From NCBI GenBank assembly GCA_964637565.1, contig CAZWTY010000011.1, positions 459 through 64,458 of the forward strand: a stretch of 64,000 nucleotides of DNA, in the 5' to 3' direction. The position numbers and the translations under genes are program-made. This document shows, piece after piece, positions 2,920 through 62,355 of the stretch (positions within the stretch are counted from its first letter, which is position 1; every line of letters begins with the position of its first letter). The notes beneath the pieces are model-generated. The model did not search any database. It was not told the DNA's origin and saw only the letters and a list, made by a program, of their open reading frames with translations. The DNA comes from an uncultured Desulforapulum sp. Its GTDB lineage: Bacteria > Desulfobacterota > Desulfobacteria > Desulfobacterales > Desulfolunaceae.

Positions 2920-5169
2920 TTATTTGACCGATTTCATGAATTCCAGGTCCATGCGGCTCCGCTCGGCCATCTTTTCCTCGAATTCGTTTCTGTCGATGTT
3001 CATGAGAATCCGGTAGGCGTGGTACTTGGTTTTGATGAAGTAGATGTCAAAAGGCGCCTGCCTGTTTTCACTCCGGTAAATTCGGACACCGGGAATGTCG
3101 CCGTGCATTACCGGCTCGCAGTCCATGTTCACCAGAAGGGGTTCGATATCCTCCCGGTTCTGCCAGGGCACGCAGGCCCCGTTCATGGAAAGGTCCGGGT
3201 CCATGATCGAACGGACTTTTTCCGTCACACCGCCCACGGCCAGGATGATGTCCCCCGTCAGTGACCCGGTGATGCCGTAGGTTTGGTTTACCGGAACCTT
3301 GATGTAGTCGCTGATCAGGGCCACATCCATGGCGATGGAGGCGCTGTCGCCCTCCACGCCGCCGTGGGCCTGGATGTATTCGATGTGCATTTCGTAACCG
3401 ATGTAGGGAGCCCCGATTTTCCGGAAGGTCTTTTTGATGGAAGCACGGACATTTTGGGCCGCCGCCTTGGCGATGTCTCCGGTTTTTCCCGATGCGGCCA
3501 CGGTGTCCGCGCCGCCGGGGTTGATCTGGCAGTGGATGGGCAGGGGCTGGCCGAACATCTGGCCGCTGGCCTGTGAGCTGATCACGGCCAGGCCCACCAC
3601 GTAACCGATGGCGTCGGTCATGGAACTGATGTAGTTTTTCAGTTCTTTTTTGTGGCGAATCGCTTCCCGGGACAGGGTGCCTTCCAGGCTGATATGTTCG
3701 GCCAGGGCTTTTTTTACGTGTTTTTCCGTGACCAGGTCGGCGTTTTCCAGAATGGCTTCGTGCTCTGCCGTCTTGATGATCCCGTTAATGGGTCTGAGGA
3801 TGGCGGAGAGCTTGCCGTCTGACGCGCGGCAACGGAGTTCCTTGATGATTTCCGCCACGGCGCTGCGGGTGAATTCACGTTCTTTCAGGGTGTACCCTTC
3901 GGGCAGGTCCCGCCCGAAAATTTTTTCACTGCGGACCCTGACCCCTTCGTATCCTTCGGTTTCGAGGATGTCGTTCCAGGTTTCCCTGAATTCTTTGCCA
4001 AGGTTCATGATTTCCTGTTTCACGTACATGGCGGTCTGCTTCAGGGTATCGGGTGTTTCATCCACGCTGGATTCCATCTGGATCACCTCGCCCTTGTCTT
4101 CGATCCGGCTCAGGAAAGCCCCGTCACCTTCGCTCTGGAGAAAGGAAAGGGTGTCGTGGTTGCAGCAGGCGATGATGATGTTGCTGGCCCGCAAAGGGTT
4201 TTCCGAACGGTCTGCGGCCCCGCTTCCCGTGCTTCTTCCTCCTTCGAGGATGTATTCCCTGTTCTGCATGATTTCCAGAAGACTGGACATGTAGCCTGAA
4301 CGGACAAGGGTTTTGAGTTCGTCTATATAGATGATGGGAGCCTTGGCGTGGGCCCCGAGATAGGTTCTTTTGTGGATCGGCGTCTGGAGGTTGCCGGACT
4401 GGTAGGGGTCGTGCCTGAAACCGCCTTTCATGTTCCTGGCGTCGGGTTCGGAAACGCAGATCATCAGGTCCCGGTCTTTTCTCGGATCGTAGAGGACTTC
4501 AGGAATCATGTCCGACAGGTGTTTCACCTCGTTTTTCCGCCCGGCCTGGTTGTCCTGCTGGATTTTCTCCTGGACCCGGTGGTTGTTGGCCTGCATGAAA
4601 AGAAAAATTGAACCGATGCCGGCAAGCCCGGTGAGGATGAACATCAAAGGAAAGAAAAAACCCAGGATGATGCTTGACAGAGCGACGACAAACAGGATGT
4701 TCCGGGCAAGGACCACGGGCCTGATCTGGTCGTACAGGGAGAAGGGCTCCAGGCTGTAGCGTGCTTTTTCGATGTCCTCCGAGACTTTCTCGATCTGGCG
4801 CTCGAGGGTTTCCGGCGGCGCATAGGCAAACCGGACGTGGTTCTCGTCTTTTCCCGGAAAGGCGGCGATGGCTTCCCTGGGCCGGAGGTAATCCCCGATG
4901 GACATGTCGAGGACGTCCCGGAACATGGAGGCCAGAAGGGATTTGCCGGTGCCGGGACGCCCGACCATGAGGATATGGCCTTTGTTCTGGGCGATTTTGC
5001 GGATGGCCTGTTTGGCGTCGTTCTGGAAAATCACCCGTTCGATGGGGTCTTCCGGAAGAGTCAGTTCCGACGTGTCACGGAACGATGAGAGATGTTCGTC
5101 AAGAAATTCCGGGTATCTGAGAAGCTCGCGGACCGCCTCGTAATCATTTTCAGTGTAGACCTTACTCAT
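2920..5169 (-). CDS. Archaeal-type membrane-anchored Lon protease (LonB-like)
   Basis: 749 aa. Walker A 'GRPGTGKS'. A hydrophobic hairpin 'ILFVVALSSIILGFFFPLMFILTGLAGIGSIFLF' is inserted before Walker B 'IIYIDELK'. The C-terminal S16 protease domain has Ser in 'GDSASIAMD' and Lys in 'GGVTEKV'. Confidence 0.85.
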   Translation of the reverse strand: MSKVYTENDYEAVRELLRYPEFLDEHLSSFRDTSELTLPEDPIERVIFQNDAKQAIRKIAQNKGHILMVGRPGTGKSLLASMFRDVLDMSIGDYLRPREAIAAFPGKDENHVRFAYAPPETLERQIEKVSEDIEKARYSLEPFSLYDQIRPVVLARNILFVVALSSIILGFFFPLMFILTGLAGIGSIFLFMQANNHRVQEKIQQDNQAGRKNEVKHLSDMIPEVLYDPRKDRDLMICVSEPDARNMKGGFRHDPYQSGNLQTPIHKRTYLGAHAKAPIIYIDELKTLVRSGYMSSLLEIMQNREYILEGGRSTGSGAADRSENPLRASNIIIACCNHDTLSFLQSEGDGAFLSRIEDKGEVIQMESSVDETPDTLKQTAMYVKQEIMNLGKEFRETWNDILETEGYEGVRVRSEKIFGRDLPEGYTLKEREFTRSAVAEIIKELRCRASDGKLSAILRPINGIIKTAEHEAILENADLVTEKHVKKALAEHISLEGTLSREAIRHKKELKNYISSMTDAIGYVVGLAVISSQASGQMFGQPLPIHCQINPGGADTVAASGKTGDIAKAAAQNVRASIKKTFRKIGAPYIGYEMHIEYIQAHGGVEGDSASIAMDVALISDYIKVPVNQTYGITGSLTGDIILAVGGVTEKVRSIMDPDLSMNGACVPWQNREDIEPLLVNMDCEPVMHGDIPGVRIYRSENRQAPFDIYFIKTKYHAYRILMNIDRNEFEEKMAERSRMDLEFMKSVK

Positions 5170-6331
5170 CCTGACTTCCTTTGATGGTGTCCAGAAGGTA
5201 GAACGTGCCCGCGTCCGATGCCGGGGCCTTTTTCGAAATCTCGTTGTAGAGATTGGGAATCTGCTCTTTCAGCGGTTCGAGCGCGTTGAGATCGTGCATC
5301 ACCGAAATATGGGTGTGCATCCTTTCTTCACCTGAACTGGAATGGGGGATGTAGTTGAAAGAGATCACCCTCTGTTGGTTGTTCAATGTTTCTGCAATGG
5401 TGTTCCTGTCTTCCGGGGCCAGCCGGGACACATCGAAATTGTTCCGGAATATCTGGGGAAGATGGCTCTGGGAATAGGCGAATTCAAGCTGCCGGGTGAA
5501 AAAAAGCTTGAAGGGCCGGGCTTCTCCCCGGACGCAGAGCTGGAGCGCATCAGCCAGTTTCTCATTGGTCCTGAGGGACTGTTCGAAAAGCTGGAGCCAG
5601 GAAACAAGCCTGGCGTCCTCGACCATAAAGCCGGGAAGCCCGTCTTTCCCCGAAACGAAAAAACGGACCATGCCGTTCTGGAAAAACCGGATCAGCTGGA
5701 AGCGGTTGTCCGGGTTGAACGATTCAAAGGAGTATCCCCTCAACTCGAACAGTCCACGGCTCAGGTAGGACCGTTTCATGGTGATTTTAACCGGAGTCAG
5801 CAGATGGGTTGCCATGTAGTTCAGTTTGTCCTGAACCGTTCCGGTGAGATCAAGTTTGTACCGGTTCCCCGCGATGTCCTCGCAGATTCCCGTGATGTCC
5901 TCGATCTGTGATTCATCTGCGTAGGACAGGTAGCGGAGAAGGTTGTCATAGGGTCTGAGGTGTCTGTAAATCTGCCTGAAATGGTTTTCAAGGGCCTTGT
6001 CTTCAAATCCGTAGGTTTTCATCTGAAGATGGGCCAGGTATTCGTGGCTGTTGTCTTCCCCGTTCTTTTTTCTGGAAAACGGCCTGCCAAGCCCGCCCAT
6101 GAGTTTTTTGTACCAGGGTTTCCTGTAAGTGACATGGCATCCCACCAGCCGGTCCTGAATGACGACAGGCTCGGGATTCAGGAGATACCACCCCAGTTCG
6201 GAAAGGTGATACTCTTTCACAGGTCCGGAGATGTTTCTTTCTCCAAGGGCGTCGAGACTTGAGATGGTGGGATTGCTTTCCGAAATGATCCAGACCGGTG
6301 CGCCGCGCCTTTCGGGGTGTAATGTGTGCAT
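5162..6331 (-). CDS. Hypothetical protein (389 aa), translationally coupled to the LonB-like protease
   Basis: Long ORF with no motif I recognise. The ATG at 6331 is preceded by GAGG with a 6-nt spacer, and the track's 6367 start is a TTG. The stop overlaps the Lon start by 8 nt. Confidence 0.6.
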   Translation of the reverse strand: MHTLHPERRGAPVWIISESNPTISSLDALGERNISGPVKEYHLSELGWYLLNPEPVVIQDRLVGCHVTYRKPWYKKLMGGLGRPFSRKKNGEDNSHEYLAHLQMKTYGFEDKALENHFRQIYRHLRPYDNLLRYLSYADESQIEDITGICEDIAGNRYKLDLTGTVQDKLNYMATHLLTPVKITMKRSYLSRGLFELRGYSFESFNPDNRFQLIRFFQNGMVRFFVSGKDGLPGFMVEDARLVSWLQLFEQSLRTNEKLADALQLCVRGEARPFKLFFTRQLEFAYSQSHLPQIFRNNFDVSRLAPEDRNTIAETLNNQQRVISFNYIPHSSSGEERMHTHISVMHDLNALEPLKEQIPNLYNEISKKAPASDAGTFYLLDTIKGSQDE

Positions 6332-6620
6332 GGACGACCTCAAACATAAAACGTGCATGAAAAACAAGAACGGACTTTTACATATTTATCAATGGGTTGC
6401 AATATCAAATCCGTTTCATCACTGATCTATATGATAAGCAATATAAATGCCATTGTGAACCCTTTTCTTTAGAGTCGGGAAAACAGACTCGGAGAGGTGA
6501 AAAAATGGGATGGACGTTTTGATCAAGATTTTCATTCCGGATGTGTTCTCTATACAGGACAGTGATTCAGTCCAGTGGACAAGCCGGGGTTACGCTGTCG
6601 GGTTCGATTGCCAGAACGTT

Positions 6621-6654
6621 TCGATAGCGATCCCGATATCGATAGCGATCCCGA
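6621..6654. repeat. Tandem direct repeat TCGATAGCGATCCCGA x2 (period 18 nt)
   Basis: Exact 16-nt copies at 6621-6636 and 6639-6654. They sit about 100 nt upstream of the dynamin-like gene start. Confidence 0.8.
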
Positions 6655-6750
6655 GCGAGACAGGAAGGGGCGATCATATCTGTTGACCTGAAAAACCTGT
6701 TCTGATAGCCATGGGTCAGGAACATTCAACCGACGACAAGGAAGAAACCC

Positions 6751-8178
6751 ATGTTTCGTGAAAACTACAAGACGTCTCTTCAGAAAGACTTTCTGGATAT
6801 GGTGGAGCAGAAACTGACGCCCTGCGCCATGCGGTACAAATACAGCGAAGTCCCGCTGGAATCCACCATCAAATGGCGGCCCGTGGTCTTGATCCTTGGG
6901 AATTATTCCTCGGGGAAATCCACCCTGATCAACGAGTATCTGGGAGGATTCATCCAGGAAACAGGGCAGGCCCCCACCGACGATTCCTTTACCGTGATCA
7001 CCTATGACAACGTGGAAACCGATGATTACAAGGTCCGGGTGACCGAGGAGCACGACGGGGCCTACCTTATGAACGATCCCGAGTTCCCCTTTGAAACGTT
7101 CAAGAAGTACGGAAGGCGTTTTTCCGCCCATTTCCGCCTGAAAAAGGTGAATTCCCCGTTTCTCAAGGAACTGGCCATCATCGACACACCGGGAATGCTG
7201 GACAGCGTCACGGAAAGGGACCGGGGGTACAACTACCAGCAGGTGATCGGGGACTTCGCCCGCATCGCCGACCTGATCCTCGTGCTGTTCGATCCCCACA
7301 AAGCGGGAACGGTCCAGGAAACCTACGTGGCCCTGAGGGAAACCCTGCCGGCCAGCACCTTCGACGACCGGATTTTCTTTGTGCTGAACCGCATCGACGA
7401 ATGCGAATCCATGACCGATCTGCTTCAGGTTTACGGAACCTTGTGCTGGAACCTGTCCCAGATGACCGGGAGAAAGGACATCCCCCGCATCCACCTGACC
7501 TACTCGTCCTGCGTTTCAAGGCAATCGGAAAAGACGGATTACCTGAAATACCTCCAGAACCAGAGGGAACAGCTAAGACAGACCCTTCTCAGTGCTCCGG
7601 ACCTTCGTCTGGACCACATGGCCGGTTTTGTGGAAACCCATTCGGAAAGCCTGGACCATTTTCTCGAAGCCCTGCTGAACTACAAGAAAAAAGCCCTGGG
7701 TTTCGACCTGCGCTTCGGGATCTCCACAGGGGTTCTCAGCCTGATCCTGAGTTTTTCCGCCATATTCTTTCTCAGTCTTTCGGGGGCCCTGGGCGGCATG
7801 CCCATCGAACTGCTTCTCCTCTTCGGCCTGGGCGGAGCGGTTCTCCTTTACGCGACCCTGGTGTCCGCGTTCAAGACCATGTTCAAAAACAGGTTTCACA
7901 AGCGTGTGATCGACGACTTCGACAACCTCACGCCCCTTGAGAACCAGAGGCGGAAAGACACCTGGGCTTCGATTCGAAAGCTTGCCCTGTCTTACCTTGA
8001 AACGGAAAAATGGCGTTTCCCCCTGACCCGGGTGAAAAGGGAGCGTGATGTGATTCACCAGGTGGCCACGGCCGGTGTCAAGGAAATCCGTGAAGCCCTG
8101 GCCGAACTGAACACGATCCGGGACGATGAAAGTCTGGAGGAAGGGGATAACCCTGATAATCAGGGAAAAAGTGCTTAG
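6751..8178 (+). CDS. Dynamin-family GTPase with C-terminal membrane hairpin (bacterial dynamin-like protein)
   Basis: 475 aa. G1 'GNYSSGKST', G3 'DTPGM', G4 'NRID'. Two hydrophobic helices near the C-terminus: 'GVLSLILSFSAIFFLSL' and 'IELLLLFGLGGAVLLYATLVSAF'. Confidence 0.75.
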   Translation: MFRENYKTSLQKDFLDMVEQKLTPCAMRYKYSEVPLESTIKWRPVVLILGNYSSGKSTLINEYLGGFIQETGQAPTDDSFTVITYDNVETDDYKVRVTEEHDGAYLMNDPEFPFETFKKYGRRFSAHFRLKKVNSPFLKELAIIDTPGMLDSVTERDRGYNYQQVIGDFARIADLILVLFDPHKAGTVQETYVALRETLPASTFDDRIFFVLNRIDECESMTDLLQVYGTLCWNLSQMTGRKDIPRIHLTYSSCVSRQSEKTDYLKYLQNQREQLRQTLLSAPDLRLDHMAGFVETHSESLDHFLEALLNYKKKALGFDLRFGISTGVLSLILSFSAIFFLSLSGALGGMPIELLLLFGLGGAVLLYATLVSAFKTMFKNRFHKRVIDDFDNLTPLENQRRKDTWASIRKLALSYLETEKWRFPLTRVKRERDVIHQVATAGVKEIREALAELNTIRDDESLEEGDNPDNQGKSA

Positions 8179-8207
8179 GGGTCAGGCGAAGGCCCGCCCC
8201 CTTTTTT
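8178..8207 (+). terminator. Putative intrinsic terminator after the dynamin-like gene
   Basis: GC-rich interrupted hairpin GGGG-tca-GGC/gaag/GCC-cg-CCCC followed by TTTTTT. It lies between convergent genes. Confidence 0.55.
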
Positions 8208-8212
8208 GACCG

Positions 8213-10027
8213 TTAATTTTCTTCAGTGTTTATCAGCTTTCGTTTGACGTAGCTTCCCGGGGCATTTTCTATGGCTTTGTACCGCCGATTCCCCGGCTTT
8301 CTTTTTGGAACTCTCAACCCCGCATACTCTCTGTTCCACCCATGCCAGTTATTCCACCAGGAACCCGCTCGCCAGGTGCTTGTCGTGAACCATTCGTCCG
8401 GAGACTCCGGAAGACTATCTGAAAACCTGAAGCCGTACTTGTTCTTTTCAGGTGGATTGATGACACCTGCCACATGGCCCGACCCCGCCAGAACAAAACG
8501 GACCGGTCCGGAATGAATGCGGCAGCCATGATACGAGCCTTTCCATAAAACGATATGGTCGTCTTCTGTTGTGAGAAAATAGGCCGGTGTGGTGATGGCC
8601 GACAGATCAATGGGAACACCCTTGAGGACGATCCCCCCGGGTTCCTTGAGTTTGTTTTCAATATACATTTTGTTGAGGTAGAACGTGTACATGTTGGCGG
8701 GCAGGTTGGTCGAATCCGAATTCCAGTATAAAATATCGAAGGGAACCGGTGTCTTTCCCTTCAGGTAGTTGTTCACCACATAGGACCAGATCAAATCGTT
8801 GGATCTTAGCATGTTGAAGGTCTGGGCGAGCTGGCGTCCATCGAGGTAGCCTGTGATCTCTATGGTTTTTTTCAGGACATCGAGCTGCTCTTTGTCCACG
8901 AAGATACCCAGGTCGCCCGGGTCTGAAAAATCCATGAGGGTGGCAAGATAGGTCAGGGACGCAAACCTGTCTTCTTTTTTTCCGGCAAGATACGCCGCCG
9001 TCGAGGCGAGCAGGGTCCCTCCCGTACAGTACCCCATGGCGGACACTTTTTGTTCGCCGGTAATATCCTTGATGATATCAAGAGCTTTGATGTGCCCCAT
9101 CTCCATGTAGTCTTCATACTTCATATGGGCGTGACGGCTGTCGCAATTGACCCAGGAGATCATGAAGACCGTGTATCCTTTCTTGACCAGCCAGCGAACC
9201 AGGGAGTTGCTCTCGTTCAAATCCAGGATGTAGAACTTGTTGATCCAGGGCGGGGATATCAGGATGGGGGTTGAATAGACGTCTTTGGTTACCGGTTCGT
9301 ACTGGATCAACTGCATCAGTTCATTCTGGTAAATGACTTTACCGGGTGACGTCGCGATATTTTTCCCCAGTTCGAAGGCCTGGGTGTCGGTCATTTTTAT
9401 ATGGATATTGCCGTCAACACTGCTGACATCGTTGAGGAAGTTTTCAAAACCCTTGATAAGGTTGTCTCCACCTGTTTCAAAGGTGATTTTCATCAGTTCC
9501 GGATTTGTCAGAAGAAAGTTGGACGGTGACAGGGCATCTGTGATCTGCTTGGTAAAAAATACGATTTTCTTTTTTTTCTGTTCATCGATGCCATCGATTC
9601 CGGAGACCATGTCATTGATGTTGTTCGATGTCACCAGATAGAAATCCCTCAATAACTTATAGAACTGGTTGGAGTTCCATTCGTCGCTCTTGAACCGTTT
9701 ATCCGTATGCAGGGCACGTATGCTGTCTTCCGGTTCGATACCGCCGATAAAGTTGCTCATGAAGCACTCGGTAAGACGCATGTAATCCGAGATAAACCGG
9801 TGCTGGATGTTGAGAAACGTTTCAGGATTCATAAAATATTTAAGCAAAGGCCCGCTGTAATCCGAAGCCATCATGAAGTCAGCCTTGATATCCGAAGAGC
9901 TGGACTGTTTTTTGAGAAAGAATGATAAAAGGCCTTTCTGTTTGTAGAACATCTGGTTCATCAGTTCGATGATCTTGACGAGATTAACGCCGGCATTCGT
10001 TTTCTTTTCAGGCATGGACGCCCCCAT
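8213..10027 (-). CDS. phaC: Poly(3-hydroxyalkanoate) synthase, class I-like
   Basis: 604 aa. Lipase-box-like 'GYCTGGT' with the catalytic Cys, alpha/beta-hydrolase core, and typical PhaC length. Confidence 0.88.
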   Translation of the reverse strand: MGASMPEKKTNAGVNLVKIIELMNQMFYKQKGLLSFFLKKQSSSSDIKADFMMASDYSGPLLKYFMNPETFLNIQHRFISDYMRLTECFMSNFIGGIEPEDSIRALHTDKRFKSDEWNSNQFYKLLRDFYLVTSNNINDMVSGIDGIDEQKKKKIVFFTKQITDALSPSNFLLTNPELMKITFETGGDNLIKGFENFLNDVSSVDGNIHIKMTDTQAFELGKNIATSPGKVIYQNELMQLIQYEPVTKDVYSTPILISPPWINKFYILDLNESNSLVRWLVKKGYTVFMISWVNCDSRHAHMKYEDYMEMGHIKALDIIKDITGEQKVSAMGYCTGGTLLASTAAYLAGKKEDRFASLTYLATLMDFSDPGDLGIFVDKEQLDVLKKTIEITGYLDGRQLAQTFNMLRSNDLIWSYVVNNYLKGKTPVPFDILYWNSDSTNLPANMYTFYLNKMYIENKLKEPGGIVLKGVPIDLSAITTPAYFLTTEDDHIVLWKGSYHGCRIHSGPVRFVLAGSGHVAGVINPPEKNKYGFRFSDSLPESPDEWFTTSTWRAGSWWNNWHGWNREYAGLRVPKRKPGNRRYKAIENAPGSYVKRKLINTEEN

Positions 10028-10287: not shown

Positions 10288-10295
10288 GAGTCCAC

Positions 10296-10395
10296 ATATT
10301 CGCTGGGGGTGTCCTGACCGTGGTCGGGACTGAGACGGAAGTTATTTCCAACCCTTTGAACCTGATGCAGGTGATACTGCCGTAGGGAAGCACGA
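10296..10395 (+). promoter_or_regulatory. TPP (THI-box) riboswitch
   Basis: CUGGGGGUGUCC...GGGACUGAGA...ACCCUUUGAACCUGAUGCAGGUGAUACUGCCGUAGGGAAGC matches the conserved THI-box core (GGGGUGC, CUGAGA, ACCCUUUGAACCUGAU, GCGUAGGGAA). It sits directly upstream of thiS. Confidence 0.88.
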
Positions 10396-10432
10396 AAAAA
10401 TCACACATCACTTTTTTATTTTGGTTTTTTTT

Positions 10433-58862: not shown

Positions 58863-58951
58863 TTAATATAATTTTTTGTAACCTTTTTGATTTTTCCGGT
58901 TCCTTATGTTCAAAAATGTTTCATGTTAAAAAATGTAGCCAGAGGTTTTTT

Positions 58952-59944
58952 ATGACATCCATTTCACGACGATCCTTTATCAAAGGAACAGCAGCTCTTC
59001 TCTGTTCAACAGCTGTTCCTGGCCTGGCCGAAAGTGCCGGTAAGATCAACCAGGAACCTCTTGCCACCCTTCATGATCTGAGAAAATGCGTTGGGTGCGG
59101 AGAGTGTGTGGAAGCCTGCCGTGAAGAGAATCAACGTTATTTTCCTGAACCTTCAAAGCCTTTTCCACGCATGCGCCCTTCACGTGTCAAGGCTGAAGAC
59201 TGGTCTGACATGAGAGAGGAGAGAAGCCGGCTGACACCCTATAACTGGCTGACTATCCAGCAGGCAGATGTGACGACGGGCCAGGGCGATCTTACGGTGT
59301 TCATCCCGAGGCGCTGTATGCACTGCGTCAACCCGCCTTGTGTGAAACTCTGTCCATGGGGAGCCGCATACCAGAAGAAAAACGGCCTTTCTGTGATCAA
59401 CCCGGATATCTGTCTTGGAGGGGCGAAATGTCAAAACGTTTGCCCATGGGATATCCCTCAGCGACAGACCGGAGTCGGCCTTTATCTCGATATCCTTCCA
59501 TCCCTTGCGGGCAACGGTGTTATGTACAAATGCCATCGATGTTACGAAAAAGTTGCCATGGGGGCGAATCCGGCATGTATCGATGTCTGCCCTGAACATG
59601 TTCAAACGATCGGCCCCAGGAGTGAAATTGTGGCGAAAGCTCATGAAATTGCCCGTGAAACAGGGGGATACGTTTACGGTGAACTTGAAAACGGTGGCAC
59701 TAACACAATCTATGTATCGCCTGTACCTTTTGATCTTTTGAATCAGGCAATCCAGAAAGGGAAGGGACTTCCTGATCTTGATCGAAAAAAGGATGTCATG
59801 GCGGATGGAAACGCAATGGCCACCGCTCTTTTCTTCTCTCCGATTGCAGGTGTTGTGGCGGCGGTTTCGCGTTTTATTTTCACGATGAAAAAAACGACTG
59901 GCAACGAATTGATGACACAGAAAGAGGAGTCCCATGAATCATAA
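58952..59944 (+). CDS. TAT-exported 4x[4Fe-4S] ferredoxin-type subunit (NrfC/PsrB/HybA-like) with C-terminal TM anchor
   Basis: Twin-arginine 'SRRSFIKGTAALL'. Cys clusters 'CVGCGECVEAC', 'CMHCVNPPCVKLCP', 'CLGGAKCQNVCP' and 'CHRC...CIDVCP'. C-terminal hydrophobic helix. Confidence 0.8.
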   Translation: MTSISRRSFIKGTAALLCSTAVPGLAESAGKINQEPLATLHDLRKCVGCGECVEACREENQRYFPEPSKPFPRMRPSRVKAEDWSDMREERSRLTPYNWLTIQQADVTTGQGDLTVFIPRRCMHCVNPPCVKLCPWGAAYQKKNGLSVINPDICLGGAKCQNVCPWDIPQRQTGVGLYLDILPSLAGNGVMYKCHRCYEKVAMGANPACIDVCPEHVQTIGPRSEIVAKAHEIARETGGYVYGELENGGTNTIYVSPVPFDLLNQAIQKGKGLPDLDRKKDVMADGNAMATALFFSPIAGVVAAVSRFIFTMKKTTGNELMTQKEESHES

Positions 59945-60386
59945 AATCTTTAAGATCGCCCTGAAGGCGGCATTTTTTATGCTGCTGCTTTCGGGGTTCG
60001 CCCAGATGCCAATATTTAAAAGGTACTATATAGCGGATATTCCGGGTTTCGGTTGGCTTGCGGATTTTGAACTGACACATGCCCTTCATTACGGTTTTGC
60101 CATTGTATTCTGCCTATTGTTTTTTTATCATGTTACTTTGGAGATGCTGGTAAAACGATACACTTGTCTTACAAAAAAGCAGGTTACGGATACGCTGATC
60201 AACCACGGCCTTACCATCGGGATCGTGAGCACGGGGATGATCTTGGTTTTGAAAAATTTTCCGGGTTACCATATGGCTCCCGAGGTGATTGTAGGCCTTG
60301 ACATCATGCACCTTGGTCTCGTGATGACCCTCCTGGGATACAAGGCTTTGGGTTTTGTTCGGTTGAAATACGCTCGACAATCGTGA
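59934..60386 (+). CDS. Small integral membrane protein (4 TM), putative quinone-interacting/cytochrome b-like partner
   Basis: 150 aa and hydrophobic, with conserved-looking His in TM segments ('THALHYG', 'FFYHVT', 'MHLG'). An 11-nt overlap with the Fe-S gene. Confidence 0.55.
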   Translation: MNHKIFKIALKAAFFMLLLSGFAQMPIFKRYYIADIPGFGWLADFELTHALHYGFAIVFCLLFFYHVTLEMLVKRYTCLTKKQVTDTLINHGLTIGIVSTGMILVLKNFPGYHMAPEVIVGLDIMHLGLVMTLLGYKALGFVRLKYARQS

Positions 60387-60405
60387 TGAAAACATGGAGG
60401 TACCG

Positions 60406-60549
60406 ATGAAAAGTGTTCTGTTGTTTCTGGGATTTATTGGGTTATGGGTTCTGCTTCAAACCGTCATTCTTCCCAAAATGGGAATAAGCACCTGAATGCG
60501 CGATGCCTGCCAGGTGGCAGACATGAAAAAAAATGACGATAAAAAATGA
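60406..60549 (+). CDS. Mini-ORF for a single-TM peptide: 29 aa if UGA 60493-60495 terminates, 47 aa if it is decoded as Sec
   Basis: GGAGG RBS (60396-60400), then ATG 60406: MKSVLLFLGFIGLWVLLQTVILPKMGIST-[UGA]-MRDACQVADMKKNDDKK-stop. The extended stop (60547-60549) overlaps the ECF sigma ATG (60546) as ATGA. The ORF is below the track's size cut-off. Confidence 0.35.
60503..60524 (+). other. SECIS-like hairpin 8 nt downstream of the in-frame UGA
   Basis: AUGCCUGCC-AGGU-GGCAGACAU, a 9-position stem with one C/A mismatch. The loop GGU falls at +21..+23 from the U of UGA, versus G22 G23 U24 in the E. coli fdhF SECIS. Confidence 0.35.
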
Positions 60550-61148
60550 AAAAAACCTCAACACACGAAGAGGACCTGAGACTCATTGACGGGATACGGC
60601 ATGGTAAACCAGGGTTGTTCCACCGTATCATGGAAAAATACCAGGTTAAAATTTATAATTTCGGTCTGAAAATCTGTCCCACGGCTCAAGACGCCGAGGA
60701 CCTGGTTCAGGAGAGTTTTTTTAACGTATTCAAATACCTGAAAGACTTCAGGCAGGAGATGTCATTTAAAAACTGGCTTTACCTGATTGCCTCATCCGTG
60801 TGTCACAAAATGAAACGGAAATCAAAATTTGCTCCTGAGCGAGAGCTTTCGCTGGAAGAGTTCATGCCCTCCCATTCCGGCCTTGACATGGAGAGTGTTC
60901 CGGAATGGGCGGATGAACCGGTTGAAAAACTGCTAAACCTTGAGCTTGCTGAAAAAATTCAGACCGCTGTCTCAAATCTTCCGACAGACTATCGCCTCGT
61001 TCTTGTGCTCAGAGACGTGGAAGGCTTTTCAACACAGGAAACCGCTGGTATCCTTGGAATATCATCCCCCACCGTTAAGGTCCGCCTCCACAGAGCCCGT
61101 CTTTTTTTACGGGAAGCTTTGAAGGAGTATTATGATCACTCATCCTGA
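60546..61148 (+). CDS. ECF (group 4) sigma-70 factor
   Basis: 200 aa. Region 2 'AEDLVQESFFNVFK' and region 4 'VLVLRDVEGFSTQETAGILGISSPTVKVRLHRAR'. Confidence 0.9.
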   Translation: MKKTSTHEEDLRLIDGIRHGKPGLFHRIMEKYQVKIYNFGLKICPTAQDAEDLVQESFFNVFKYLKDFRQEMSFKNWLYLIASSVCHKMKRKSKFAPERELSLEEFMPSHSGLDMESVPEWADEPVEKLLNLELAEKIQTAVSNLPTDYRLVLVLRDVEGFSTQETAGILGISSPTVKVRLHRARLFLREALKEYYDHSS

Positions 61149-61392
61149 AACGAAAGACGATCATTCGTTTTGCAGATCGTGCTTTGAACGCCTTTCAGAA
61201 TATATCGACCATGAACTTGGGGACAGTGGAATGGACGAAATTAAAAATCATCTTGAAAATTGCATCTGCTGTACGGCGTGTTACAGTACTTTGAAAAAAA
61301 CAGTGGAAATCTGCGGAAAATTGAATGACAAACCGGTCCCCACGGGATTTGCATCACGATTGAGATCTTTTTGCGAAAAAATGAACGGGTAG
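61132..61392 (+). CDS. Cytoplasmic zinc-binding anti-sigma factor (ZAS, RsrA-like)
   Basis: 86 aa with no TM. 'HLENCICC' (H-x3-C-x2-C) plus upstream 'CRSC'. A 17-nt overlap with the sigma gene. Confidence 0.8.
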   Translation: MITHPETKDDHSFCRSCFERLSEYIDHELGDSGMDEIKNHLENCICCTACYSTLKKTVEICGKLNDKPVPTGFASRLRSFCEKMNG

Positions 61393-61449: not shown

Positions 61450-62355
61450 CTACAAGCCCGGCATAAGCCAGGATATGGCGACGATGAACACGGCCAACAC
61501 CAGAAGGATCCATTGCAGATCGTTGTTTGAGGCGGCGTTTCTGAAAAGCAGGACGTCGATGGCCCCAAGAACTCCTCCGGCGCAAAATCCAAAAAAATGG
61601 GCCAGGACATCTGTCTGCTCACTTGATCCCAGAAGACCGAGCAGGGCGAGACCGGCTCCAACAGGAAGCAGCGCTTTGATCCGGGGCGCTTTTTCCCTGA
61701 AAAGACGGGTGGCTCTGATGGTCGAGAGAATTCCCACAGCCCCGAAAACCGCAGTGGATGCTCCAATGGAAATATGTTCAGTCTGGTAAAAGAAGGCGTT
61801 TGCCAGGTTTCCTGCCGTACCAGAAAGAAGAACCATCAGCCATCCTGTCCCCAATCCACAGATGCTGACAACCGCGGAACAGAATAAAACGATTCAGGCC
61901 ATGTTTCCTGCAAGATGAAGTGTGTCGCCATGGAGGAATAGGGCGGTGACGCTGAGGTGCCATGAGCCGTCCACAATTCGTTCCGCTGATGAGCCGAATC
62001 GTTGAACGATCTCCGCATGATACGCATCGCTGGAAGATGTTTTTAAATGAACGAGGAGAAGCAGGGTGGCGATGAAGAGACCGCTGGCCGATTTGTTGAA
62101 CTTGTCCAAAGACGGTTCGATGCTTTCCTGGAGCTGGTTTTCTTCACTGTAAAGCAGCAGAACATGGTTTGCTTTTGTTTCGTTACGGATATCGACCAGA
62201 ATATCAATGGCCTGATCGTCAGTTCGGACGAATTTGTAGGGGATTCGTTGTGACGCAAGAACAAGCCCAACCGTGTCGGCCTCTTCAACCGTCAGGCCAT
62301 GAAGCAGAACTGTTTTTTCCGGGAGTTCATATGTACTGATCTTTGACTCCTTCAA
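61450..62355 (-). pseudogene. Rhomboid-family protease interrupted by a single in-frame TGA (61894-61896)
   Basis: Upstream ORF ends '...ALFLHGDTLHLAGNMA*' (HxxxxHxxxN). The same frame continues 'IVLFCSAVVSICGLGTGWLMVLLSGTAGNL...GASTAVFGAVG...AHFFGFCAGGVLG'. The downstream track ORF begins only at a TTG. Confidence 0.6.

Follow-up and report, generated by a model that had tools for sequence, protein, structure and literature searches.

A candidate family of small membrane selenoproteins encoded in an ECF sigma factor operon of Desulfobacterales

Does a UGA codon that appears to close a very short gene just ahead of a sigma factor gene encode selenocysteine (Sec) instead? The question is raised by a locus in a stretch of 64,000 nucleotides (nt) from an uncultured Desulforapulum sp. 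(GenBank contig CAZWTY010000011.1), hereafter called the window. The ATG at 60406 opens 29 codons, MKSVLLFLGFIGLWVLLQTVILPKMGIST, that run up to the TGA at 60493-60495. Another 17 codons, MRDACQVADMKKNDDKK, follow in the same frame, and their stop, the TGA at 60547-60549, shares bases with the ATG at 60546 of an extracytoplasmic function (ECF) sigma factor gene, the two being written as ATGA. A preliminary description of this stretch proposed that both parts together form a 47-residue, membrane-anchored selenopeptide with a U-x4-C motif, and that a hairpin behind the UGA acts as its Sec insertion sequence (SECIS). The sequence features on which it relied, i.e. ribosome-binding site, ATG, UGA, 17-codon extension, ATGA overlap and hairpin, are all present where they had been placed (Table 1).

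Our results favor this proposal. The selenopeptide is strongly supported by conservation of the UGA and of the frame, by a covarying hairpin, and by homologues with Cys in place of Sec. We put the probability of the reading as a whole, an uncatalogued family of 47-residue single-pass membrane selenoproteins in an ECF sigma operon, at about 0.8, and we are slightly more confident still that the mini open reading frame (mini-ORF) is a real Sec-encoding gene. An independent assembly from the same organism (L103) has the identical mini-ORF, TGA included, so that a read error cannot account for this codon. One gene caller chose the upstream in-frame ATG at 60394 as start; the start conserved across orthologues is 60406. 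A single transmembrane helix spans approximately residues 4-22 of the peptide, which also has the motif LPK(M/L)G(I/V)xT-U-x4-C-Q-V and a tail that is short and charged. Lys and Arg together average 0.6 in the N-terminal flank versus 1.7 in the first 15 residues past the helix, and by the positive-inside rule the topology is most likely N-out/C-in, with the tail and its Sec-x4-Cys pair facing the cytoplasm.

Conservation across the UGA codon

Since a direct protein search with the mini-ORF product gave few relatives (three close ones only, each annotated as 29-33 residues), we fetched 80 genome loci by way of the adjacent membrane protein. The mini-ORF is present in 40 of 84 loci, which correspond to 36 distinct sequences, mostly from Desulfobacterales and with this window included; these are the 36 loci referred to below. 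The distance from Met to the first stop is invariant at 29 codons, and the codon that follows, codon 30, is TGA in 36/36 loci and never TAA or TAG. Beyond it, frame 0 stays open for at least 17 codons in every locus, against 6/36 and 7/36 for the other two frames, and it encodes [M/L]-x-[D/N/E]-[A/S]-C-[Q/R]-[V/L] followed by a polar tail, with 17-34 codons in all. The Cys at +5 is invariant and is coded by both TGC (9 loci) and TGT (27), Gln stands at +6 in 34 of the 36, and position +3 (D/N/E) displays synonymous GAT/GAC and AAT/AAC variation. Two traits expected of a selenoprotein gene, an in-frame UGA conserved among orthologues and a conserved frame that continues after it, are thus found here. 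The preliminary description had held that orthologues ending at the first stop, with neither the downstream frame nor the hairpin conserved, would argue against it, as would an unrelated, non-conserved ORF. Neither was seen: the mini-ORF is conserved in 36 distinct loci, all of them with the frame open.

A third trait is the presence of Cys in homologues at the position of the UGA. A profile search with the peptides returned 688 proteins, nearly all of them 29-residue stubs, with about 20 "full-length" sequences carrying Trp (W) at the Sec column and a few carrying Cys. A hidden Markov model search of 1.84 billion cluster representatives (50% identity) yielded 882 matches at E up to 1e-3. Among the best 147 of these 882 clusters, 77 end at the UGA; the Sec column is W in 34, Cys in 31, Gly in 2, Arg in 2 and Ser in 1. 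Thirty of the 34 W forms and 29 of the 31 Cys forms preserve the second Cys. W at this column results from gene calls under a code that reads UGA as Trp (genetic code 4). Public protein collections (P0124-P0144, P0245-P0345) likewise hold many family entries with W, and a few with Gly, at the Sec position; these stem from short contigs called with UGA-as-sense codes, a systematic annotation artefact that hides selenoproteins.

At the DNA level, TGT or TGC was seen at the Sec column in L085, L087, L089 and L091-L102, and CGA in L090. The twelve loci L091-L102, which read ILPKLGI[SP]T-C-[LM][RS]G[SA]-C, come from a metagenome scan whose query had Cys at the Sec position; the scan returned Cys forms only, and their gene contexts are not an unbiased sample. 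Whether homologues carry Cys or UGA at this column had been named beforehand as a check, and the answer is that Desulfobacterales have UGA in this column, and homologues of the form TxC-x4-C in other lineages TGT/TGC. Such alternation is the classical Sec/Cys signature.

The hairpin and the place of the family among selenoproteins

The hairpin reads AUG.CUGCC-AGGU-GGCAG.CAU in the window, with GGU at +21..+23 when the U of the UGA is counted as +1. Its loop is AGGU in 30 of the 36 loci, AGUU in 4, GGUU in 1 and GGGU in 1, always at +20..+23, so that the UGA-to-loop spacing is 16 nt throughout, and the stem has 5-10 bp. Two pairs change on both sides. Alignment columns 21-34 are UA in 22 loci, CG in 14 and broken in none, and columns 24-31 are UA in 24, CG in 8, UG in 2 and other in 2; at least four combinations of the two covarying pairs occur, and more than one compensatory event must therefore have taken place. 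In the 36-sequence alignment 88.5% of cells pair, compared with 32-75% when the 3' partners are slid, and the covariation score was reached by 0/500 shuffles. The structure is in this sense supported by covariation, with the two pairs varying in few clades.

Constraints on bacterial SECIS elements (bSECIS; Zhang and Gladyshev, summarised in PMC13188914) comprise a loop of 3-9 nt, a stem of 4-16 bp, a spacing of 16-37 nt, a minimum free energy of at most -7.5 kcal/mol, and, at loop position 1 or 2, a G with G or U after it. The hairpin lies within the limits for loop, stem and spacing, and its G is at loop position 2 (position 1 in GGUU and GGGU). Over 48 nt the energy is -7.5 kcal/mol or lower in 28/36 loci (-10.2 in the window), and in 8/36 loci it fails this limit. 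RNA folding and comparison of the hairpin among orthologues, the test that had been proposed for it, thus leave an element that is conserved with compensatory changes and fits the bSECIS geometry. An Rfam scan of the window at gathering and E-value thresholds gave no SECIS match, the Rfam SECIS models presumably being too family-specific.

The hairpin had initially been called fdhF-like, and this holds for loop and spacing: its G-G-U at +21..+23 is one nt nearer to the UGA than the G23/U24 loop of the E. coli fdhF SECIS. It does not hold for the bulged U17 of the upper fdhF stem, which has no counterpart here, the window stem having a C/A mismatch. With other bacterial genes that carry a SECIS inside the ORF, the locus shares a UGA followed by a small hairpin, an apical G-G/U, a spacing within range and Cys homologues. 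It differs in the size of the gene (144 nt), in the minimal hairpin (5-10 bp with a tetraloop), and in the position of the SECIS region, which overlaps the start of the following gene, that of the ECF sigma factor, or borders on it. Five Sec-form loci without a downstream sigma gene keep both the UGA and the hairpin, and the hairpin is therefore not simply a signal for sigma translation; a role as Shine-Dalgarno element of the sigma gene only was ruled out on this ground.

The hairpin is conserved across the UGA forms, and the Cys forms differ in what they keep of it. L089 (TGT), probably a recent change, retains it, and L087 (TGT) has a five-pair stem left, with the loop AGUUA. In L085 (TGT), from Omnitrophica, the hairpin is absent and C-x4-C-Q is retained, and the AGGU tetraloop at +20..+23 is missing from L085 and from L091-L102. 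The constraint on the protein is partly separable from that on the RNA, because C-x4-C is kept without the hairpin in Cys forms.

The preliminary description had not recognised the peptide as a member of any known selenoprotein family, and our searches agree. Thirteen Sec- and Cys-form variants gave only sub-threshold chance matches against Pfam-A and NCBIfam (release 20, June 2026), with NCBIfam scanned to E up to 10 (up to 0.1 for the first variant), and no small transmembrane U-x4-C peptide is among the 119 families of prokaryotic selenoproteins inventoried in May 2026 (PMC13188914). The family is very probably new, as compared with the Haft selenoprotein families through the table of PMC13188914 and NCBIfam, and with the sequence of OS_HP2 (Olavius study, PMC1976440) outside the comparison. 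Nearest by motif is TsoA, the "LULAxC motif selenoprotein" (NF045695; Haft and Tolstoy 2025, in PMC13188914 Table 1), likewise uncharacterised and with Sec and Cys a few residues apart, and some members of the present family read T-U-L-A-D-S-C. However, the spacing in TsoA is U-x3-C versus U-x4-C here, and none of the 13 variants matched NF045695.

Gene callers annotate the locus either as a 29-residue hypothetical protein or, under genetic code 4, as a Trp-containing protein. Among eukaryotes, SELENOK and SELENOS are small single-pass membrane selenoproteins of the endoplasmic reticulum with Sec in a short polar cytosolic tail, and SELENOS forms a Cys-Sec selenenylsulfide. The peptide described here resembles them in being a small single-pass membrane protein with a Sec tail predicted on the cytosolic side. 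It has no Pfam match to them, however, and they belong to another domain of life, use a SECIS in the 3' untranslated region, and have Sec near the C-terminus and not near the membrane.

If our reading is true, it adds a family of selenoproteins that is widespread (882 clusters at 50% identity) and that current pipelines are likely to overlook. At 47-64 residues its members would rank among the smallest bacterial selenoproteins, and they would be membrane-anchored. In its prediction of Sec-machinery genes the BSepDB workflow requires an ORF of at least 200 nt; were selenoprotein ORFs filtered by a similar length, genes of 144-195 nt would drop out. No literature that links selenocysteine with ECF sigma factors was found, and this would be, as far as our literature search goes, the first selenoprotein gene found within an ECF sigma/anti-sigma operon. 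In sulfate reducers that are dominant in their environments, it would connect selenium biochemistry in a testable way with a membrane electron-transfer module and with stress signalling at the level of transcription.

The operon

Table 1. Features of the selenopeptide locus, with positions in the window.
Feature	Position	Strand	Basis
ECF-type promoter-like motif TGTAACC-N16-TTCCTTA	58877..58906	+	Sole exact match in the window
Poly-ferredoxin exported by twin-arginine translocation (TAT); HybA/FdnH/HmcB-like, four 4Fe-4S motifs	58916..59944	+	NCBIfam, Pfam
150-residue four-helix membrane protein	59934..60386	+	Family of at least 1457 proteins; AlphaFold2 pLDDT 90.5
Shine-Dalgarno site GGAGG of the selenopeptide gene	60396..60400	+	Direct reading; GGAG-type sites 5' of the start in most orthologues
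Candidate selenopeptide gene	60406..60549	+	47 codons plus stop, MKSVLLFLGFIGLWVLLQTVILPKMGIST-U-MRDACQVADMKKNDDKK; conserved in 36 distinct loci
In-frame UGA, proposed Sec codon (residue 30)	60493..60495	+	TGA in 36/36 loci; TGT/TGC in the same column in Cys-form homologues
SECIS-like hairpin with tetraloop AGGU at its apex (60512-60515)	60503..60524	+	Conserved loop and spacing, compensatory pairs
ECF sigma factor	60546..61148	+	TIGR02937, 95.8 bits (cut-off 42.9); Sigma70_r2, Sigma70_r4_2
Soluble 86-residue zinc-binding anti-sigma factor (ZAS), zinc finger H-x3-C-x2-C	61132..61392	+	zf-HC2 (PF13490), 29.9 bits (cut-off 22.2)

The candidate selenopeptide gene is the third of five genes, which encode in order a periplasmic Fe-S protein, a cytochrome-b-like membrane protein, the selenopeptide, an ECF sigma factor and a soluble ZAS anti-sigma factor. 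Among the distinct loci with the Sec form, 32/37 show synteny with all four partner genes, those for the ECF sigma factor and the ZAS protein standing directly downstream; in the other five neither of these two does. The five-gene order was also found in 7/7 loci retrieved by means of the peptide itself, that of the Olavius Delta-1 symbiont included, one of the seven having a rhodanese gene inserted ahead of the peptide. The motif TGTAACC-N16-YTC occurs exactly once per locus in 30 related loci, 60-130 nt 5' of the Fe-S gene. Its form is that of an ECF promoter, which suggests that it is used by the operon's own sigma factor and that the operon may be autoregulated.

The Fe-S protein gave partial matches to the NCBIfam models for HmcB, HybA and the formate dehydrogenase beta subunit, and matches to Pfam Fer4_7, Fer4_11 and TAT_signal. 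Its annotated start at 58916 is probably wrong, and the true one probably the ATG at 58952 (MTSISRRSFIKG), just before the twin-arginine motif; this second ATG is favored because the promoter motif ends at 58906. The membrane protein gene, which overlaps the end of the Fe-S gene, encodes a protein that matches no Pfam or NCBIfam family and, at the sequence level, no PDB entry. The best PDB folds for it are E. coli hydrogenase-1 cytochrome b (TM-score 0.66) and cytochrome b6, with weak Foldseek E-values. Two histidines, H52 and H126, are invariant; the protein probably binds haem b, and its invariant residues suggest one bis-His site only. The family motif QMPIFKRYYIAD(I/L)PG(L/F)GWL is nearly invariant as well. 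A TAT-exported four-cluster ferredoxin followed by a four-helix cytochrome b-like membrane protein is shared with the FdnH-FdnI and HybA-type modules, whereas no catalytic subunit is encoded nearby here.

The sigma factor has regions 2 and 4 without region 3, the layout of the ECF (group 4) class. No Shine-Dalgarno site was found ahead of its ATG in the window, nor in the three closest relatives, which also have ATGA. The sigma start falls 3-64 nt within the read-through frame wherever a sigma gene is linked, and in the largest clade, that with the tail motif ULxxSCQVTS, the sigma ATG is at UGA+34, 10 nt past the loop AGGUG. With the sigma start placed in this way, any ribosome that reads the UGA as a sense codon passes through the region of sigma initiation.

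The anti-sigma factor carries the ZAS motif as HLENCICC, with its Cys and His conserved in 35 orthologues. These have 85-95 residues with a conserved C...H-x3-C-x2-C-x2-C...C pattern, a His-rich N-terminus (HDHxH-C) and no visible membrane-spanning (hydrophobic) stretch. The anti-sigma factors thus possess an extra Cys past H-x3-C-x2-C (C-x2-C-x2-C), and another conserved Cys about 14 residues on. Linkage of the mini-ORF to a TAT Fe-S/membrane redox module upstream and to an RsrA-like anti-sigma factor downstream had been part of the preliminary description. Synteny with the module and with the sigma/anti-sigma pair, and the ECF-type promoter, bear out the linkage; the RsrA label fares less well, the window anti-sigma scoring 26.4 bits against the RsrA equivalog TIGR03988, below the cut-off of 62.5, so that it is RsrA-like in action at most by analogy. 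The SigmaR-RsrA-thioredoxin circuit of Streptomyces (PMC4960319, PMC3961337) has in common with this operon a soluble H-x3-C-x2-C anti-sigma with its ECF sigma, and a sigma factor that apparently controls the operon in which it is encoded, along with a candidate (seleno)thiol redox component. Here, however, an Fe-S/cytochrome-b/selenopeptide membrane module stands in the place of thioredoxin, and the feedback loop is a putative one.

Some variation in this neighbourhood was recorded alongside. About half of the loci with the Fe-S and membrane protein genes are without both the selenopeptide and the sigma gene. Three loci with the Fe-S and membrane protein genes carry the ECF-type motif (L061 2879-2908, L066 742-771 and L060 1996-2025), and the stretches fetched for them contain no gene for a sigma factor, an anti-sigma factor or the selenopeptide; the sigma factor may act in trans on such modules. 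Some loci (L104 8945-10035; L107-L110, about 6060-9500) have a gene for an iron-dependent repressor of the DtxR type directly behind the operon, on the opposite strand, accompanied by FeoA and FeoB in L107-L110 and by a FeoB-associated gene in L104; this may be clade-specific synteny or a link to iron.

Proposed role and competing explanations

According to the mechanism that we propose, SelB-dependent insertion of Sec at the UGA would be directed by the minimal SECIS hairpin, and the resulting Sec30/Cys pair would cycle between the selenol/thiol and the selenenylsulfide at the cytoplasmic face of the membrane. The peptide may serve the Fe-S/cytochrome-b module as a small, redox-active subunit or as a partner, and it would link the redox state of this module to the thiol-sensitive cytoplasmic anti-sigma factor, as thioredoxin closes the sigmaR-RsrA loop, in an operon that is apparently driven by its own sigma factor from the conserved ECF-type promoter. 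The redox-relay role of the peptide is a tentative proposal to which we give well under even odds.

The Cys forms are found in other contexts: RND efflux genes with Usp, ArsR with a ferredoxin, thioredoxin with a DsbD-thioredoxin fusion, and a YgaP-like protein with a CoA-disulfide reductase (CoADR)-rhodanese. The last of these is the context of the Omnitrophica Cys form (L085 5001-5186), which has the gene of the YgaP-like membrane protein on one side and that of the CoA-disulfide-reductase/rhodanese fusion on the other. In the Sec-form operon of L110 a 276-residue rhodanese-domain gene (4033-4863) lies between the membrane protein and the selenopeptide. The rhodanese neighbours in L110 and L085 hint at sulfur or selenium transfer.

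These contexts bear on what the peptide does. It could be that the (U/C)-x4-C motif binds a soft metal or metalloid with no relay to the anti-sigma factor, or that it carries a persulfide or perselenide from a rhodanese-type donor to a membrane partner. The Cys forms beside RND efflux pumps, ArsR, the YgaP-like protein with its rhodanese fusion and the DsbD-thioredoxin fusion are consistent with such handling of metals or sulfane sulfur, as are the rhodanese gene directly 5' of the peptide in one Sec-form operon and the His-rich N-termini of the anti-sigma factors. However, the contexts are heterogeneous and few were examined, and the dominant Sec-form context is without a transporter and usually without a rhodanese; we regard this role as rather unlikely. 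Less likely again is a leader ORF gated by selenium, in which the UGA and hairpin would be mainly regulatory, ribosomes could not reach the sigma initiation region unless the UGA is decoded by Sec-tRNA(Sec) with SelB, and the SECIS would serve at the same time as part of that region. Synthesis of the sigma factor, and through autoregulation that of the whole operon, would then report the selenium status of the cell, and this could coexist with a functional peptide. The position of the sigma start inside the read-through frame, the ATGA overlap with no Shine-Dalgarno site found in the window and its three close relatives, and the loop AGGUG of the largest clade, which could itself serve as Shine-Dalgarno sequence of the sigma gene, all speak for such a gate. 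Yet five Sec-form loci keep UGA and hairpin with no sigma gene to be gated, Cys forms in unrelated gene contexts keep C-x4-C, which argues for a functional peptide, and A-rich leaders can start translation without a Shine-Dalgarno site. Were it true, both operon and regulon would depend on the decoding of this UGA, this would be the first selenium-responsive sigma factor, and recoding would have a new use, as a sensor.

The least probable explanation, to which we give very little credence, is an ordinary stop at the UGA. The gene would then make a membrane micropeptide of 29 residues, and the hairpin with its apparent frame would be conserved only for translational coupling to the sigma gene or as its attenuator. 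Gene callers do annotate a 29-residue product, the hairpin overlaps the sigma initiation signals in one clade, and bacterial Sec insertion is inefficient, so that the truncated peptide would be made in any case. An ordinary stop, however, is hard to reconcile with the strict use of TGA where TAA or TAG would serve, with Cys codons exactly at the UGA column in homologues that continue in frame with C-x4-C-Q, with a frame open in all 36 loci, and with a hairpin that is kept where no sigma gene follows.

The reading that we prefer should nevertheless be interpreted with some caution, since several observations weigh against it. The covariation comes from few clades, and its independent events are few. 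The fold of the window hairpin taken alone is unremarkable (-11.8 kcal/mol, z = -1.5), and as far as these sequences go the significance of the hairpin comes only from comparison with relatives; the hairpin is short, and in about half of the loci the energy of its stem alone is only -4.7 to -6.9 kcal/mol. The stem nucleotides are also the bases of the A/S-C-Q-V codons, and constraints on RNA and protein are to that extent confounded. Tail and sigma gene have 43-46 nt in common in the ULxxSCQVTS clade, and conservation of the tail may there reflect the sigma frame. With the gene contexts of the Cys forms, a role in handling metals or sulfur agrees no less than a redox relay does. Finally, no selA, selB, selC or selD gene and no tRNA-Sec is present in the 64-kb window; it has no tRNA genes, motif scans for SelA, SelB and SelD gave nothing, and its other TGA-interrupted ORFs were noise only.

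Carriers of the family include a Desulforapulum autotrophicum metagenome-assembled genome and the Olavius Delta-1 symbiont, and the richness of such lineages in Sec supports Sec decoding indirectly. The type strain of D. autotrophicum has selA, selB, selC and selD, together with at least 31 selenoproteins (PMC2702500). In BSepDB, Desulfobacteria and the Olavius symbiont have the top selenoprotein counts, that of Olavius Delta-1 being the largest known selenoproteome.

Elsewhere in the window, a rhomboid protease gene on the minus strand (61450-62355) has an in-frame TGA at 61894-61896. It was considered as a second Sec site and rejected: the independent assembly L103 has Gly (GGA) there, the relative L001 has an uninterrupted 301-residue rhomboid gene with Gly at the same position, and the TGA is a nonsense single-nucleotide polymorphism or an assembly error. 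The only Rfam match in the window is a thiamine pyrophosphate (TPP) riboswitch (RF00059) at 10295-10405 on the plus strand, which scores 72 bits, above the gathering threshold.

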